DNA from: Desulfocapsa sulfexigens DSM 10523
GTDB taxonomy: Bacteria; Desulfobacterota; Desulfobulbia; Desulfobulbales; Desulfocapsaceae
Length of the DNA: 32,000 nt
Direction of reading: 5' to 3'
Assembly (NCBI RefSeq): GCF_000341395.1
Contig: NC_020304.1
Location: 1,050,001 to 1,082,000 of the forward strand
Below the pieces are notes generated by a model that saw nothing but the letters and a program-made list of their open reading frames with translations, had not been told where the DNA came from and made no database searches. Positions within the stretch are counted from its first letter, which is position 1; every line of letters starts with the position of its first letter. Below, one piece after another: positions 3,960-13,446 of the stretch. Made by a program: the position numbers and the translations under genes.

Positions 3960-5339
3960 ATGAACTGGAAACGCACCGTTGATCAGGAACGCAGTCGCCT
4001 GCTGCAGAGAGGACACTTAGGGGATGGGCCGGTAATCTACTGGATGAGCAGGGACCAACGAGTGCATGATAACTGGGCCCTTCTTTACGCCCAGGAGAGG
4101 GCGCTTGCCCTGCACAGGGGTTTGATTGTTGTCTTCTGCATCGACCTGGACTACCCGGCGGCCAATCTTCGCCACGTTGCTTTTCTCCTGCACGGCCTGG
4201 AAGAATTGCAACACACTCTGCAAAAGGCGGCTATCGGCTTCTACCTTTTGCATGGAGCGCCTGATATTGCATTGCCTCCCTTTTTAAAAAAAATAAACCC
4301 TGCCCTCCTGATTACTGATTTTGACCCGCTACGTATCAAGAAACAGTGGAAAAAGGATACCCTTCAGTACTGCAGTATGCCTGTTTTTGAGGTGGACGCC
4401 CACAACATAGTTCCCTGCTGGCTGGCCTCTGATAAACGTGAATATGCAGCCTATACCATACGGAAAAAGATACAACGGCTACTGCCCAGGTTTCTTACGG
4501 ACTTCCCGCCACTTGAAAAACATCCATATTCCTCAGCCACTCAGCCGTTTTCTGCCAGGACATACCTGAAACAGATCAAAGACAAATCAGTTGCTGAAGT
4601 TCACTGGATCCATCCCGGTGAAAGAGCAGGAAAAAATCTTCTGGCAGAATTCCTGGCCCATGGCCTCCATTCATATTCCACAGAGCGCAATAATCCGTGC
4701 CTAGACGGTCAGTCAAATCTCTCACCCTACTTCCATTTTGGCCAGCTTGCTCCCCAGCGTGTAGCCTGGGAGGTAGAAAAAAGTCCGGCAGACCTGGAAA
4801 ACAAAGAGGCATATCTGGAAGAATTAATCATCCGCCGCGAACTTTCAGATAATTTCTGTTATTACAGTCACGATTATGACCGTTGTACTACCTTTCCGGA
4901 TTGGGCAGGAAAATCCTTGGATATTCATCGAGGAGATGTCCGTTCGTATGTAGCGAATCTTCAAACCCTTGAGAGTGCAACTACGGAAGATGAACTCTGG
5001 AATGCTTGTCAGCAGGATTTAGCAGAGCAGGGGAAGCTTCACGGGTATCTGCGTATGTACTGGGCAAAAAAGATTCTTGAATGGTCAACATCCCCTGAAG
5101 AAGCCATGTACAACGCCATTTATCTCAACGACAAATATTCCCTCGATGGACGTGACCCTAATGGTTACGCTGGTGTTGCCTGGAGTATTGGCGGAGTGCA
5201 TGACAGAGCATGGGCGGAACGGCCTGTGTTTGGCAAAATCCGATATATGAACAGCAATGGATGCAAACGAAAATTTGATATTGCCTGTTATTTGAAACGA
5301 GTAAAGAAACCTGATTACCATCGAAACTCAGCTTTGTAA
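3960..5339 (+). CDS. phr: Deoxyribodipyrimidine (CPD) photolyase, class II
   Basis: VIYWMSRDQRVHDNWALLYAQ and the C-terminal GYLRMYWAKKILEW ... WSIGGVHDRAW blocks are class II photolyase hallmarks. The last 10 codons and the stop lie inside repeat copy A. Confidence 0.9.
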   Translation: MNWKRTVDQERSRLLQRGHLGDGPVIYWMSRDQRVHDNWALLYAQERALALHRGLIVVFCIDLDYPAANLRHVAFLLHGLEELQHTLQKAAIGFYLLHGAPDIALPPFLKKINPALLITDFDPLRIKKQWKKDTLQYCSMPVFEVDAHNIVPCWLASDKREYAAYTIRKKIQRLLPRFLTDFPPLEKHPYSSATQPFSARTYLKQIKDKSVAEVHWIHPGERAGKNLLAEFLAHGLHSYSTERNNPCLDGQSNLSPYFHFGQLAPQRVAWEVEKSPADLENKEAYLEELIIRRELSDNFCYYSHDYDRCTTFPDWAGKSLDIHRGDVRSYVANLQTLESATTEDELWNACQQDLAEQGKLHGYLRMYWAKKILEWSTSPEEAMYNAIYLNDKYSLDGRDPNGYAGVAWSIGGVHDRAWAERPVFGKIRYMNSNGCKRKFDIACYLKRVKKPDYHRNSAL

Positions 5340-5485
5340 CCCGGAGTTGTTCCGTGTCGATTATATGGGACGCCATAACCCCTTCCCTGGGGGCTCTGCT
5401 GCGGCCGTCCAGCCCGCAGAGCCCATATAATCAACACAAAACAACTCTTCCTCAGGCGGGTAGGCTGAGGATTAGTGGTAATCAA
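5310..5485 (+). repeat. Structured non-coding repeat, copy A (MITE/REP-like)
   Basis: 5310-5459 recurs as a reverse complement at 19103-19255 with few mismatches. Nested inverted repeats: GTGTCGATTATAT (5354-5366) / ATATAATCAACAC (5425-5437), and GGGCTCTGC (5391-5399) / GCAGAGCCC (5416-5424). Terminal inverted repeats TGATTACCAT (5312-5321) / GTGGTAATCA (5475-5484). Confidence 0.8.
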
Positions 5486-5496
5486 GTAAAGAAAAG

Positions 5497-6438
5497 CTAA
5501 AATTTTCCCTTTAAAGTAACACCGACAAAAGGTGCAGCATCGAAATCTGTTTCACCCAGTTCGTGGCCATCTGCATCCTCTATGGTAATACTTCCGCCCA
5601 TCAGCAGACCGGTGTTAACATCAAAGCGGTAATCTTCATCCAGCTTCCAGCCCACCCGTAAAAATGGGGCCCAGAAGGTCATATCAGCAATACCGTCTGC
5701 CACCATGCTGCTGTCGTCCAGACGAAACCGATAGGATCTGTAAGCACCGCCGATTCCCACTTCCAGACTGCTTACAGGGGCGTATACCAGCTCCACCCCT
5801 GCCGGGCCAACCGGTCCTGCCGGAAAGGGATTCGTCAGCCGGAACTGCTCGTTAATCTGCCAGTTAATGACCACATAGGGAAACATCTCAAACTGATCAA
5901 GACGTTCGAACATTCCTGCACCGATTCCCAGCATTAAGTGTCGACTAAAGACATAGGCACCTGACAGCACGCCCCCATAGGACAGAGACTCACTGATTTC
6001 AGCACCAGAAGCACTGGCAAAGCCAATAGATGGGATCAGTCCAAAATGCCAGTTTTGTGATGGTGCATAAAAAACAGGAATGGATATCCCCGGTCTGATA
6101 ATTTCTTCCCACAGGTCAACGGAATGCAGTCTCGCAATGTTGGAGAAATCCCAGATCTCATAATCAAAACTCAACCCCAGACCTACTGTCCAGTTGCTGT
6201 CAATGGAGCGGGATGCGTTAAATCGTAAAAAATGACGCTGCACATCGAACTGTCCACTGCTATCCAGATCCGTTTCGAACTGATAGATCGGGGTGTAGGA
6301 GAGTCGGTAATTGTTTTTCGATTCCACATTCCCTTCCCGGGATCCCTCTGGCGGAGGCGATCCGGCAAAGCTGGAAATCTGTGTTGTAAAGAAAATTGAG
6401 AACAGGATGCTGGCTTTGACAAGATGTTTTTGGAACAT
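5497..6438 (-). CDS. Outer-membrane beta-barrel protein with signal peptide
   Basis: N-terminal signal MFQKHLVKASILFSIFFTTQISSFAGS. Alternating beta-strand pattern. C-terminal ...VTLKGKF ends in Phe, as is typical of OMPs. The ATG at 6438 has an AGAGGA Shine-Dalgarno. An alternative TTG at 6465 overlaps the upstream stop. Confidence 0.7.
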   Translation of the reverse strand: MFQKHLVKASILFSIFFTTQISSFAGSPPPEGSREGNVESKNNYRLSYTPIYQFETDLDSSGQFDVQRHFLRFNASRSIDSNWTVGLGLSFDYEIWDFSNIARLHSVDLWEEIIRPGISIPVFYAPSQNWHFGLIPSIGFASASGAEISESLSYGGVLSGAYVFSRHLMLGIGAGMFERLDQFEMFPYVVINWQINEQFRLTNPFPAGPVGPAGVELVYAPVSSLEVGIGGAYRSYRFRLDDSSMVADGIADMTFWAPFLRVGWKLDEDYRFDVNTGLLMGGSITIEDADGHELGETDFDAAPFVGVTLKGKF

Positions 6439-6461
6439 GTGGATCCTCTTTTTGGTTGGAA

Positions 6462-6902
6462 TCAAGGGGAAATACTTTTTTGTTTTGCCTCCTGGTCAAG
6501 ATACTCTGCAAAAGATGCAAGGGACTTTTTATCAAGAGGTGTTGGCTGATGACTTTTTTTGTCAATGAAGAGGCCTGTCTGAGTACCGCTGACCGTTAAT
6601 TCATCGTTGCAATTATAGAAACGAAATTCCATATTAGCCGAGACATGACGCAGTCTGGACAACCACACCTCAATGCGAACGGTATCCCCAAGAAAAAGCT
6701 GCTTGTGATATCGTGCCTCTGTCCTGATAAGTGTGGGGAGAAGACCAAGCTTTTCAATGATCTCATGGACCGGCATGCCGATAGCTTCAAGGAGCTTGAG
6801 GCGGCCGATTTCCATCCACTGAATATAGACAATATTACTCACATGGCCAGCAAAATCGATGTGATAGGTGTGGACATTTTCTGTAAATATTACTTTTTTC
6901 AT
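6462..6902 (-). CDS. Acyl-CoA thioesterase, hotdog fold (4HBT/YbgC-like)
   Basis: HTYHIDFAGHVSNIVYIQWMEIGR is a typical 4HBT N-terminal motif. The start overlaps the upstream stop (ATGA at 6899-6902). Confidence 0.8.
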   Translation of the reverse strand: MKKVIFTENVHTYHIDFAGHVSNIVYIQWMEIGRLKLLEAIGMPVHEIIEKLGLLPTLIRTEARYHKQLFLGDTVRIEVWLSRLRHVSANMEFRFYNCNDELTVSGTQTGLFIDKKSHQPTPLDKKSLASFAEYLDQEAKQKSISP

Positions 6903-7849
6903 CGGCTAACGTCTCTGTAAATGGATTGCACAGCTGCAGGTTGACAGGAGGGAGGCGAGCAGAGTGTGCAGCCGGATTCAAGGAGCAGGGGGTCGTCTCC
7001 TCGAACTCCCTGACCACCAAGGATAATGGGTATGGGGTGCCTGCCGGCCAGAGCAGCAATCTCGTTTCTGTGTTTATCATACAGCACTGTGCTTGTAACA
7101 GAAAGCCAGACACTTTTTGGCTGTATCTGCACAATGGCCTGTTCAAGGCTCTCCAGGGGAAGAGAAGAACCGAAATAGACGGGCCTGGACCCCTCCCGGG
7201 CCAGGGTATACATAACAACAAGCAGTCCTAACCTGTGTTCTTCTCCCGGAAAACAGGAACAGATAACTGGTGGATCTACCCTTTCAGGTACAGCCTGGCT
7301 CGCCTGATCGATGCAGTTGCGCAGATAGTGTTCACTTATACCGCTGATCAGATGTTCACCGGCAACAGTTATTTTTCCACTCAGATAAGCCTCACCTACC
7401 TTTTCCATGGCAGGCAGAATTACCTCATAGACAACTCTGTCCGGACTGAGCTCCAGTAGCGCTCGGTTTAATCCATCGCGAAGCTGTAAAAAATTTACGC
7501 TTTCTGCAGCTTCGATGAGGGGATTGATATAGCTCTCCAGTTCATTGTCAACAAACAGACCGGCTGCTTCCGGTTCCCGTCTCAGCCCTGTTTTATTCTC
7601 AATCTGCTGTAACAGTTTTTGTCTGCCAAAGGATGCCAGTTCACCAATGCGAAGCCCCTCTTCTCGAGTGGCCTCAGCAATATGACAGACAAGGCTCAAA
7701 TCCTCTTCGCTGTAGAGGCGTTGTCCGCCTGGGCCGCGTTCAGGACTCCACAGTGCATAGCGTTTCTCCCAGACACGCAGAAGGTCTGGCGAAATCCCGC
7801 TCTCCCGTGCCAGCGTTCCAATCTTATAAAAAGTCTTATTATTTGCCAT
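6899..7849 (-). CDS. MerR-family transcription regulator with C-terminal cobalamin-binding domain (CarH/LitR-like)
   Basis: The true start is the ATG at 7849 (MANNKTFYKIGTLARESGISPDLLRVWEKRY is a MerR HTH). The C-terminal domain carries E-x-H-x-x-G (EEHRLG, aa 203-208), S-x-L (aa 228-230) and GG (aa 278-279), plus Y-x9-EH (aa 155-166). The ATG overlaps the upstream gene end by 11 nt. Confidence 0.85.
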   Translation of the reverse strand: MANNKTFYKIGTLARESGISPDLLRVWEKRYALWSPERGPGGQRLYSEEDLSLVCHIAEATREEGLRIGELASFGRQKLLQQIENKTGLRREPEAAGLFVDNELESYINPLIEAAESVNFLQLRDGLNRALLELSPDRVVYEVILPAMEKVGEAYLSGKITVAGEHLISGISEHYLRNCIDQASQAVPERVDPPVICSCFPGEEHRLGLLVVMYTLAREGSRPVYFGSSLPLESLEQAIVQIQPKSVWLSVTSTVLYDKHRNEIAALAGRHPIPIILGGQGVRGDDPLLLESGCTLCSPPSCQPAAVQSIYRDVSR

Positions 7850-9059
7850 CTGCTGATTTCCTTCCCCAGGCCATATAGACCGGGTCACTGTGTGATATTT
7901 CCCAATGCGGGTCATCTTCTGGTCTTGGCAGGCCGCGTCTGCTTGAGGCAGAAAGATCCTGAAAGCCTCCAGTCCGATGGAACATCTCCAAAACCATGCC
8001 CAGTCGCTCAAATTCATGCAGTTGCCCCCAGATGCTGACTGCCTTTGAGGGAAACCAGCGATTGGAAAAGGCAATAGCCAGCACACCACCAGGAACCAGG
8101 ACACGCTGCAGTTCCTTAAAAACAGCCAGTGGGTCGATAAGATACTCCACCGAAGCCGTACAGATAATAGCATCAAAACTGTTCTCGTCAAAGGGTAGAG
8201 CCGAATTCTTGTTAAGATCTCTCACCATCCTCTCACCTGCCCTTGAGTTTGCTGCCAGTTCCTCCTTATTCATTCCAAGGACAGTCAGCTGCCGGACTGC
8301 AAGCTCATCGGGGAGATGGGAATCCCAGCTTCCCATAAGATCCAGGATCCTTGATTCCGGGGCAAGAATATGACCATATTCCGTACCTATGTGGTTGCGT
8401 GCCGTTGAGTCGAGATGCTGAACCATCCGGGGCTCCTGATAAAAATCACCGTCAGCTGACTCGTCGCCGCGTTCCAGGGATTTTGGAGAGAAAAATGCTG
8501 TCTCCTGTCCCTTATACCTGCTCTGCATTCCCGGCCCGTCTGCTGCAGCTCTTTCCAGCCAGTCTTCGCAGCGACCGCCCCGTTCTGTTTTGCTTGTATC
8601 TATCTGAATCACCTCTGCATGTACCGTCAGATCATGTCCGGCCAGAGGATGATTCAAATCAAAAAGGAACTTCCCCTCCTCCATTCCGACATAACGGGCA
8701 GGGGCAATGGAAACCTGAAACACACCACTTTGGCCATGGAGATACCCCTGGGGGTAAAATTGCCCCATCCTCGGCTCCAGGGGTTTATGTGCTTTATTGG
8801 GAGCTGCAAACTGTCGGGGGGTAACCCTTACAAGCTTGTTTTTCTGATAAGGTAAAAGGGAAACACTGGCCGGCACGGTCACTGACACCCTCTCCCCTTC
8901 TTTTTTACCAGTAAGCGCTGCGGCCAGCTCGGGTTCAAACCAGTCACGCCACATGCTCACTGGATCAGCCCACAGACTGTCGCGGAACTGCACCCCTCCT
9001 GCAGACCACTCAAGAGTAAATTCAACTATCGCCTTACTGTCTTTTTCCAGGGTTTTCAT
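7839..9059 (-). CDS. Fusion protein: SlyD/FKBP-like domain plus class I SAM-dependent methyltransferase
   Basis: The N-terminal half contains FDLNHPLAGHDLTVHAEVIQI (FKBP/SlyD signature). The C-terminal half contains ILDLMGSWDSHLP ... FDAIICTASVEYL ... LVPGGVLAIAF (methyltransferase motifs I to post-II). GAGGGGG Shine-Dalgarno upstream of the ATG at 9059. Confidence 0.75.
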   Translation of the reverse strand: MKTLEKDSKAIVEFTLEWSAGGVQFRDSLWADPVSMWRDWFEPELAAALTGKKEGERVSVTVPASVSLLPYQKNKLVRVTPRQFAAPNKAHKPLEPRMGQFYPQGYLHGQSGVFQVSIAPARYVGMEEGKFLFDLNHPLAGHDLTVHAEVIQIDTSKTERGGRCEDWLERAAADGPGMQSRYKGQETAFFSPKSLERGDESADGDFYQEPRMVQHLDSTARNHIGTEYGHILAPESRILDLMGSWDSHLPDELAVRQLTVLGMNKEELAANSRAGERMVRDLNKNSALPFDENSFDAIICTASVEYLIDPLAVFKELQRVLVPGGVLAIAFSNRWFPSKAVSIWGQLHEFERLGMVLEMFHRTGGFQDLSASSRRGLPRPEDDPHWEISHSDPVYMAWGRKSADGK

Positions 9060-9079
9060 CGTATTCCCCCTCTCTGTGT

Positions 9080-9101
9080 TTGTTCAGTTTCTGTTGATCT
9101 T
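9080..9101 (-). promoter_or_regulatory. Two tandem 11-bp direct repeats (AAGATCAACAG AAACTGAACAA on the minus strand); candidate CarH-type operator
   Basis: Both units fit nAnnTnnACAn and are in exact 11-bp register. They lie 21-42 nt upstream of the ATG at 9059. Confidence 0.4.
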
Positions 9102-9174
9102 TCCCAGAGATCTTCCTCTTACAACCCTCTTTCTCAAGGGCAACATGAACAGAACATAGACACAATCCCGGAGG

Positions 9175-9207
9175 AGTCAATACAAAAGTTAGACAAAACA
9201 TTGACAA
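9175..9207 (+). promoter_or_regulatory. Tandem 11-bp direct repeats overlapping a TTGACA -35 hexamer; candidate CarH-type operator and promoter of the SDR gene
   Basis: AGTCAATACAA (degenerate), AAGTTAGACAA and AACATTGACAA have ACA triplets at 9182, 9193 and 9204, an 11-bp period. TTGACA is at 9201-9206. A possible weak -10 TACTTT is at 9223-9228. Confidence 0.4.
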
Positions 9208-9276
9208 TACTCCGTGAGTCCCTACTTTTGTATCAGGAAAAGCTAAAAAACAACACCTACCCTCGGGAGAAATACC

Positions 9277-10173
9277 ATGAAAACACTGATCACAGGCGCA
9301 ACCGGTTTTGTCGGCCACCATCTGGCACAGAAGATACCCGAGGCCGTTGTTGCAGGCCGAAGCGTTGAGAAACTCAACAAACGGTTTGGGAAAAAGCGAG
9401 AAGCAAGGCAATGGGATGGATCAGCAATGCCAGATGCTACTCTGCTTGAAGGGATAGACACCGTCTATCATTTAGCGGGGGAATCAATCTTTCATGGCCG
9501 TTGGAATAAAGCAAAAAAAGAACGCATCCGTGCCAGTCGCGTTGACAATACCCGCAATCTGGTTGAAATGATCTCAAAGGCCGCAGACAGACCGAAAACC
9601 CTTATATGTTCCTCAGCTGTCGGCTATTATGGTTCTCGCGGAGATGAAAAACTGACCGAGCAAGCAACTCCTGGATCGGATTTTCTGGCTCGGGTATGCA
9701 TGGACTGGGAGAAAGAAGCACTGAAGGCGGAAGAGTATGGTGTGCGGGTGGTACTGATCCGTACGGGTGTTGTACTGGGGGCCGATGGCGGAGCTTTGGC
9801 ACAAATGCTCCAGCCTTTTAAAATGGGAGTGGGAGGACGCCTGGGCAGTGGACGCCAGTTTATGTCCTGGATCCATATTGACGATCTCATCGCTATTATG
9901 CTCTATGCAAAGGAAAACACATCTCTTCACGGAGCAATAAATGCGGTGGCGCCTAACCCTCTAAGCAACAGCGATTTTACCCGGGCTCTGGCAAGTGTTC
10001 TCCATCGTCCTGCCATTCTTCCCGCACCAGGGTTTGCCCTGAAACTTCTTTTGGGTGAATTTGCCAACGTGTTACTGGGTTCCCAGCGTGCCCTGCCGGA
10101 GGTCCTGCAACGGGCAGGATATACATACAACTATCCTGAAATCAAGACTGCCTTGAAGAACCTTCTACAGTAA
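9277..10173 (+). CDS. TIGR01777/YfcH-type NAD-dependent epimerase family protein (SDR39U1, with DUF1731 C-terminus)
   Basis: N-terminal ITGATGFVGHHL Rossmann motif. Length and C-terminal region are typical of the YfcH family. Confidence 0.85.
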   Translation: MKTLITGATGFVGHHLAQKIPEAVVAGRSVEKLNKRFGKKREARQWDGSAMPDATLLEGIDTVYHLAGESIFHGRWNKAKKERIRASRVDNTRNLVEMISKAADRPKTLICSSAVGYYGSRGDEKLTEQATPGSDFLARVCMDWEKEALKAEEYGVRVVLIRTGVVLGADGGALAQMLQPFKMGVGGRLGSGRQFMSWIHIDDLIAIMLYAKENTSLHGAINAVAPNPLSNSDFTRALASVLHRPAILPAPGFALKLLLGEFANVLLGSQRALPEVLQRAGYTYNYPEIKTALKNLLQ

Positions 10174-13038: not shown

Positions 13039-13126
13039 ATTTCTTTTAAAAAAAAGAAGTTATACAAGAAACAGACAAAGGAGAGTTCACTGTAAAGCGG
13101 AACTAAAGGCTACGGGTGCTACTTAG

Positions 13127-13228: not shown

Positions 13229-13402
13229 TCAGGATTGGGGAACAACACCACCCATTCCTACACACTCGATGCAGTACTCTTCCATCGTTTCAGGACTGTG
13301 ACAATCCTCACAAAAATTCTTATTGCACCCGATACAGACAGTGAGTTTATCCTTATCTGTTACTTTTCCACATACTTCACATTTCGCTGTTTCTTTACTC
13401 AT
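13229..13402 (-). CDS. 57-aa cysteine-rich (four CxxC) zinc-ribbon-like mini-protein, not in the supplied ORF track
   Basis: Reverse-complement translation: MSKETAKCEVCGKVTDKDKLTVCIGCNKNFCEDCHSPETMEEYCIECVGMGGVVPQS. An AAGAGG Shine-Dalgarno lies 7 nt upstream of the ATG at 13402. Stop TGA at 13231-13229. Confidence 0.6.
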   Translation of the reverse strand: MSKETAKCEVCGKVTDKDKLTVCIGCNKNFCEDCHSPETMEEYCIECVGMGGVVPQS

Positions 13403-13446
13403 TTATTACCTCTTGGTTTTAAATTGGCCATTAGCGACACGCTTTC

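Follow-up and report, generated by a model that had tools for sequence, protein, structure and literature searches.

Does the 217-bp intergenic region at 9060-9276 carry an operator for the CarH-like regulator encoded beside it, which promoters would such an operator control, and what signal would release it? These questions arise at a divergent locus in the window, by which we mean the whole 32,000-nucleotide stretch of Desulfocapsa sulfexigens DNA analysed here. The initial annotation had read 11-bp repeats in this region as operators of the regulator, and proposed that they place both the regulator's own operon and the divergent SDR gene under light and B12 control.

The leftward transcription unit lies on the minus strand. 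Its first gene (7839-9059) encodes a protein in which a weakly SlyD-like N-terminal region precedes a class I SAM methyltransferase domain (MT), and overlaps by 11 nt with the gene for the CarH-like regulator (6899-7849), a 316-aa protein with the Pfam domains MerR_1, B12-binding_2, and B12-binding. The same operon continues with a gene for a 4HBT/YbgC-like thioesterase (6462-6902), which is syntenic in most orthologues, and ends with a gene for a DUF6268 protein (5497-6465), syntenic in four of the orthologous loci (L161, L162, L163, and L168). The latter protein is an outer-membrane candidate, given an N-terminus that looked signal-peptide-like when judged by eye. On the other side of the intergenic region, the plus-strand gene at 9277-10173 encodes a TIGR01777 (YfcH-type) SDR oxidoreductase (341.8 bits against a cutoff of 207) with a DUF1731 domain assigned by Pfam; this gene is the divergent target.

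Convergent with the regulator operon is a neighbouring plus-strand operon that contains a RudS-like gene (1881-2858; 2-thiouracil desulfurase/TudS desulfidase plus DUF1722) and a class II photolyase gene (3960-5339). RudS genes are reported to occur typically alongside photolyase and LitR genes in operons that respond to light (PMC11417400). In locus L161, which is 96% identical, genes for glutaredoxin, FeThRed_B, and DCC1-like proteins are located between the RudS-like and class II photolyase genes. In another orthologous locus, L166, the photolyase homologue at 6417-7783 was matched as several fragments that overlap one another, which points to a gene disruption on this metagenomic contig.

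Re-reading the sequence reproduced every string and coordinate quoted in the initial annotation, but its count of two repeat pairs proved incomplete. The region contains three exact tandem pairs of the 11-bp consensus nAnnTnnACAn, referred to as sites A, B, and C. Site A (AAGATCAACAG AAACTGAACAA; 9080-9101, minus strand, read from 9101 to 9080) and site C (AAGTTAGACAA AACATTGACAA; 9186-9207, plus strand) had been recognised, whereas the equally exact site B (AACATGAACAG AACATAGACAC; 9142-9163, plus strand) had been overlooked. Site B begins 33 bp (3 x 11) before 9175 and is thus in register with the set at 9175-9207. Given this 33-bp phase, the units starting at 9142, 9153, 9164, 9175, 9186, and 9197 form one six-slot, 66-bp array on the plus strand. 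Within it, site B provides the direct repeats (DRs) DR1-DR2 and site C provides DR5-DR6. Between the two pairs are an 11-bp spacer in slot 3 (AATCCCGGAGG; 9164-9174, plus strand), which is not conserved and has no consensus among the loci, and a pseudo-repeat in slot 4 (AGTCAATACAA; 9175-9185, plus strand). The layout of B plus C can therefore be written as DR-DR-n-dr-DR-DR.

The array overlaps the -35 elements of both divergent promoters. In the rightward (SDR) promoter, the -35 TTGACA (9201-9206, plus strand) lies inside DR6 and is followed by a predicted -10, TACTTT (9223-9228, plus strand), which is conserved as TAnnnT; transcription from it is predicted to begin near 9236. The combination of TTGACA, a 16-17 bp spacer, and TAnnnT was found in all loci with the SDR gene (11/11). 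The overlap between site C and a perfect TTGACA, already described in the initial annotation, is canonical and is conserved in every orthologue carrying that gene. For the leftward promoter, which would serve the MT-regulator operon, a promoter scan predicted a -35 TTGACT (9175-9180, minus strand), the reverse complement of slot 4, and a -10 TATGTT (9153-9158, minus strand), the reverse complement of the 5' half of DR2. Here, TTGAC[T/A], a spacer of exactly 16 bp, and TAnnT[T/A] were found in 12/12 loci. Because site B lies over the -10 and start region of this promoter, one array covers both -35 elements together with the leftward -10 and start site.

This arrangement depends on a property of the 11-bp repeat itself, which contains a -35 on its sense strand (nnnnTTGACAn; 9197-9207) and a -10 on its antisense strand (TAnnTn, e.g. 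TATGTT; 9153-9163). Since one repeat can supply either element, depending on the strand that is read, an array that runs in one direction can control divergent promoters. Both transcription units are positioned for repression by CarH-type repeats, as had been proposed. Control of the regulator's own operon would best be explained by slot 4, which covers the -35, together with site B, which covers the -10. Site A is situated downstream, in the leader, and its conservation is limited to the two closest relatives.

We then assessed how often such repeats would arise by chance. The strict pattern AANNTNNACANAANNTNNACA matched three times in the 32-kb window, with all matches inside 9081-9206, and had no match in 100 dinucleotide-preserving shuffles of the window. 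Among 20,000 random sequences of 217 bp that had the same composition as the region, the probability of at least one exact pair was 0.0008-0.0016, and that of at least three exact pairs was 0. The earlier argument that phased pairs are unlikely by chance was thus borne out, with a local P of ~0.001 per pair. Using a PWM trained without the window or L161, we obtained the highest pair score in the window for site C (28.2) and the second highest for site B (23.9), against a null 95th percentile of 16.1. A search for further DR-type operators in the window gave none in the region upstream of the RudS-photolyase operon (961-1880) and none between the convergent genes at 5340-5496.

Elsewhere in the window, a possible extra DR pair at 13057-13078 (plus strand; AAGTTATACAA GAAACAGACAA) was borderline, with a PWM score of 16.3, approximately the null 95th percentile. 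It is located ~107 bp upstream of a VWA-DUF3592 operon (start 12950, minus strand), and a TTGACA occurs nearby on the minus strand (13039-13034). The 730-bp gap from the VWA operon to the next gene also contains a small Cys-rich ORF, read by eye as MSKETAKCEVCGK...CIGCNK..CEDCH...CIEC (~13230-13403, minus strand).

To follow the array through related genomes, we collected 18 clade loci and located their genes by tblastn. The regulator relatives form a graded series from 96% to ~44% identity. A Desulfocapsa MAG is the nearest genome; Desulfobulbaceae, Desulfurivibrio, and other Thermodesulfobacteriota MAGs make up the rest. Most of the 18 loci keep the arrangement in which the SDR gene and the MT-regulator genes diverge from the intergenic region; in L166, mscL takes the place of the SDR gene. 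The MT-regulator gene pair is conserved clade-wide, with MT immediately upstream of the regulator in loci whose regulators have W, Y, C, or F at the signature Trp position considered below; only a remnant of the MT gene is present in L165, L002, and L006. Over the 18 loci, the equivalent intergenic regions (5.6 kb) contained 24 exact pairs, and the other 177 kb contained none. Frequent tandem matches elsewhere, or a lack of conservation, had been named as outcomes that would speak against the operator reading, and neither was observed.

We compared the layout in the 12 loci closest to the window in this respect, anchoring the alignment on the last repeat only. The order DR-DR-n-dr(GTCAA)-DR-DR was found in 12/12. 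The 33-bp phase was exact in 9/12, and the other three had a 1-bp deletion in spacer slot 3. At the consensus positions A2, T5, A8, C9, and A10 of the unanchored slots 1, 2, and 5, ten other loci matched in 143/150 cases, whereas control slots matched in 47/150. The consensus positions of slots 1, 2, and 5 carried 1.83 bits of information, against 0.88 bits at their other positions; control slots carried 0.3-0.45 bits and slot 3 ~0.1-1.0 bit. Slot 4 had the consensus nGTCAAnnnAA in the 12 loci. The unit at 9175-9185, which had been described as a degenerate repeat, is therefore conserved as GTCAA, i.e. as the TTGAC of the leftward -35, rather than as a repeat.

The association between this motif and CarH-family genes extends far beyond the clade. 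Among the matches listed, we examined 153 distant CarH-family loci from Actinomycetota, Gemmatimonadota, Myxococcota, Planctomycetota, and other phyla. Part of this set came from a metagenome-contig scan with the clade alignment, whose listed matches were distant relatives and served as family-wide background, not for footprinting. In the 153 loci, the stretches from -250 to +30 around the regulator start (41 kb in total) contained 41 exact tandem pairs and the other 1.15 Mb contained nine, a 127-fold enrichment near the start. As with sites B and C, most of the start-proximal pairs (35/41) were on the strand opposite the regulator gene, which the dual -35/-10 reading of the repeat may explain. 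CarH is known to bind 11-bp direct repeats of the form nAnnTnnACAn, three of them in the Thermus operator and four in that of Bacillus (PMC8156234). The Myxococcus Pcrt promoter has its -35 TTGACA inside a DR, and CarH-type operators can comprise one to three DRs plus pseudo-repeats, with two operators for divergent promoters in Sorangiineae (PMC9304148). The proposal that the repeats are CarH-type operators beside a CarH-like MerR-B12 regulator is upheld by the match to the published consensus, by conservation, and by the family-wide enrichment. From this sequence evidence, B and C are well supported as operators.

Site A differs from B and C in several respects. It is located in the leader of the MT-regulator operon, at ~+45 to +66 relative to a leftward start predicted near 9146; its end is 20 nt short of the ATG and immediately upstream of the ribosome-binding site. 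Its position overlaps no promoter element, and its score with the orthologue-trained PWM (15.2) falls inside the whole-window null range. The site is identical in L161 and L162 and absent from L001, L163, L167-L169, and L003. It is missing from the orthologues whose regulators are 54-74% identical, and its conservation does not extend beyond about 79% regulator identity. These features would fit the alternative that only B and C are functional operators and that A is a recent or chance occurrence without a regulatory role, an alternative that we consider possible, if doubtful. It has to be set against the local chance P of ~0.001 for site A, the 27-nt block including the site that is identical in L162 despite diverged flanks, and an analogous minus-strand pair near the methyltransferase start in L004. 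An RNA-level explanation for the conserved leader was also considered and rejected, as the fold z-score was -0.85 and no Rfam family was matched in the whole window; leader RNA thus does not otherwise explain the conservation of site A. Site A is probably an auxiliary, lineage-specific site that would act as a roadblock or loop anchor.

We propose that the array at 9142-9207, with the auxiliary site at 9080-9101, is in all likelihood the operator of the adjacent CarH/LitR-family repressor (6899-7849), at which both promoters would be repressed. Each N-terminal MerR-type domain of the regulator would read one 11-bp direct repeat nAnnTnnACAn. The array would lie over two back-to-back sigma-70-type promoters, with DR6 providing the SDR -35, and slot 4 and DR2, read on the other strand, providing the leftward -35 and -10. 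Because the array lies over both promoters, a bound repressor oligomer would shut both and autoregulate the MT-regulator-thioesterase-DUF6268 operon. Binding and repression by the regulator at the array are thus what we infer from the arrangement of the DNA. By analogy with CarH, the signal is most likely light acting via a bound corrinoid, as the His-on B12 motifs, which are intact, and the neighbouring photolyase/RudS genes suggest. This is the least secure step, because the regulator is missing the Trp of the Wx9EH motif. The lack of a DR-type operator at the neighbouring photolyase operon also counts against the proposed explanation.

The regulator matched the Thermus thermophilus CarH (TtCarH) structure 5c8d at E 2e-23 over residues 7-284, a full-length match to a solved CarH that settles its fold, and its MerR_1 Pfam match had E 9e-12. 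The recognition helix, R25-V-W-E-K-R-Y31, differs from the published RxWERRY by one conservative R-to-K change, and R25, W27, E28, and R30 were invariant in 38 clade sequences. The classic B12 motif, D/ExHx2G-x41-SxT/V-x22-27-GG, is complete, consisting of E203-E-H205-R-L-G208, 41 residues, S250-V-T252, 25 residues, and G278-G279; its ExHxxG aligns to GERHEIG of TtCarH. H205 (the lower axial ligand), S250, G278, and G279 were invariant in the same 38 sequences, as was E165-H166. PF02607 and PF02310 both scored above their cutoffs, which sets the regulator apart from class II LitR architecture.

At the Wx9EH motif, the regulator reads G152-E-A-Y155-x9-E165-H166, with Tyr for Trp. In the alignment to TtCarH, the Trp is substituted without a gap in that segment. 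The position is occupied by Y, C, N, H, or F across the immediate clade (proteins P0001-P0027), and by W in 69/69 scorable distant homologues and in a Desulfurivibrio-like sister subclade. Furthermore, the counterparts of the R176-D201 salt bridge of TtCarH are E204 and S229 in the pairwise alignment. The NCBIfam CarH equivalog model NF052513 gave 117.7 bits, below its cutoff of 400, and was still the best-scoring family (E 5e-34). Reviews describe Wx9EH as conserved without exception among CarH homologues examined to date and as defining the family; its Trp is used to separate AdoCbl-dependent CarH from B12-independent CarA, in which the lack of the motif largely explains the B12-independence (PMC8156234, PMC9304148). 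The Trp of TtCarH makes contact with the adenosyl group and drives assembly (PMC8221060), and underlies the upright conformation and the head-to-tail dimer (PMC8221060, PMC8156234). GxxW also forms part of a published light-responsive signature (PMC11796333).

The proposal of light and B12 control is accordingly supported only in part. It is favoured by the B12-ligand motifs, the recognition helix, and the photolyase/RudS island, and is weakened by the Tyr, by the variability of that position in the clade, and by the low equivalog score. Such control is plausible from genomic context but not established. The operator half of the earlier reading is well supported.

These deviations lead to a second alternative, in which the DNA sites are the same and the regulator is CarA-like, i.e. 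an oligomer on direct repeats that is B12-independent or not driven by AdoCbl photolysis and is released by other means, for instance by an antirepressor, by redox, or by another form of corrinoid. Myxococcus xanthus CarA likewise has a classic B12 motif and the EH pair without the Trp, and recognises the same DR-type operator via an RxWERRY-type helix (PMC9304148). The roles of the Trp in TtCarH, the missing GxxW, and the unconserved salt-bridge pair are consistent with this alternative. So are the separated pairs in the array, since a Cystobacter CarH dimer needs two tandem DRs (PMC9304148). However, CarA also lacks four residues that flank the Trp, whereas here there is no deletion and Tyr, Phe, and His are aromatic substitutes. 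CarA is further distinguished by its CarS antirepressor and by a clade restricted to Cystobacterineae; the regulator's clade belongs to Desulfobulbales, outside Myxococcales, and no CarS-like gene was evident from the gene annotation. Invariance or near-invariance of EH, GxxH, GxxxP, SxT, and GG in the 38 sequences and the UV/light-repair island also argue against a CarA-like regulator, as does the W-type sister subclade (L005, L006, and L172), which has a homologous locus and operator. Nor are separated pairs peculiar to regulators without the Trp, as they also occur beside W-type regulators in Actinomycetota, at distances of 45-67 bp. Weighing these points, we consider a CarA-like regulator rather unlikely and retain CarH-like light sensing via a bound corrinoid as the most likely signal.

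A link between Trp loss and the split-pair operator was also considered, as W-type loci within the clade carry an uninterrupted run of four DRs and a further, distal DR, and the pairs are separated in non-W loci. We dropped this link because the slots are homologous, only one or two evolutionary events are involved, and distant W-type loci have separated pairs as well. In the W-type sister subclade (L172 423-2498, L005, and L006), the divergent operon consists of genes for PNPOx-like, SDR, and pyrimidine-dimer glycosylase/DUF1722 proteins, a composition that reinforces the regulon's UV/light theme.

Promoter elements alone could lie behind some of the conservation seen in DR2, slot 4, and DR6. 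Those elements do not account for the repeats as a whole, since L166, with neither the SDR gene nor a rightward promoter, has a DR6 (AATATAGACAA) without TTGACA and still keeps a DR5-DR6 pair that fits the DR consensus. That the repeats are no protein operators at all and only a by-product of two conserved promoters in A-rich DNA is thus highly improbable, for although TTGACA, TTGAC, and TAnnnT coincide with DR6, slot 4, and DR2, both DR1 and DR5 lie outside all promoter hexamers with A2 and A8-C9-A10 invariant or nearly so, the 11-bp register is exact or off by one base in all 12 loci, and the tandem motif is enriched beside CarH-family genes of unrelated phyla among the matches listed.

The preferred reading, an operator of a CarH/LitR-family repressor, places the locus among known systems with some differences. 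The regulator shares a MerR-type DNA-binding domain, a bundle of four helices, and a B12 domain of the Rossmann type with the CarH (LitR class I) proteins of T. thermophilus and Bacillus megaterium, and in all three cases the regulator is encoded within the locus under control, an arrangement for autoregulation. Their operators are likewise tandem nAnnTnnACAn repeats, one of which embeds the -35 TTGACA, and CarH operators tolerate pseudo-repeats and overlap the -35 or -10 (PMC8156234, PMC9304148). In contrast to these proteins, the regulator has Tyr for the Wx9EH Trp, with no His after it, and has not conserved the R176-D201 pair. Its array spans 66 bp with two DRs, a spacer, a pseudo-repeat, and two more DRs, instead of three to four contiguous DRs; the putative targets are the SDR gene and a methyltransferase-thioesterase operon, not carotenoid genes; and the host is a Desulfocapsa-like member of Desulfobulbales.

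CarH operators from Sorangiineae and Nannocystineae are also similar, with one to three DRs plus pseudo-repeats and with two operators for divergent promoters, and so is the dimer of Cystobacter CarH, each of which binds a tandem DR pair (PMC9304148). Those systems have an intact Wx9EH and serve carotenogenesis, whereas here two pairs about two helical turns apart form one array. The class II LitR proteins of Pseudomonas (PplR/PmlR) are MerR-type light-response repressors, too, with photolyase, RudS, and other non-carotenoid targets (PMC9758184, PMC11417400). That class lacks the Rossmann B12 domain and acts via a LOV partner, in contrast to the regulator here, which has both B12 domains.

The Desulfocapsa-like clade may, tentatively, represent an undescribed CarH-family subclass that has kept His-on corrinoid binding and direct-repeat operators and has lost the Trp. 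If the Trp has been abandoned, and with it the coupling of the adenosyl group to oligomerisation, a different upper ligand or photochemistry becomes possible. Such a subclass might sense light through an upper ligand or photochemistry suited to anoxic habitats, or else corrinoid status or redox, and in either case would control a partner gene, of the SlyD-like-methyltransferase type, that is conserved and translationally coupled to the regulator gene. If this is true, published mining based on the Wx9EH or GxxW signatures would have excluded these repressors.

The switch itself is of a known kind. The operator is an ordinary CarH-type operator, and the variant part is a regulator clade without the signature Trp; as the site is a textbook-style CarH site, its value lies mainly in a confident regulatory annotation. 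For the organism, the locus points to a small regulon that would be autoregulated and probably respond to light, in a sulfur-cycling lineage of anaerobes, with no carotenoids from this locus. The repeat geometry illustrates how a single directional array can silence two divergent promoters. For the family, the clade is a reminder that motif-based mining misses such CarH relatives. By breaking the Wx9EH rule while keeping the other B12 and DNA-recognition features and a conserved operator, it offers a natural test of the role of the Trp.
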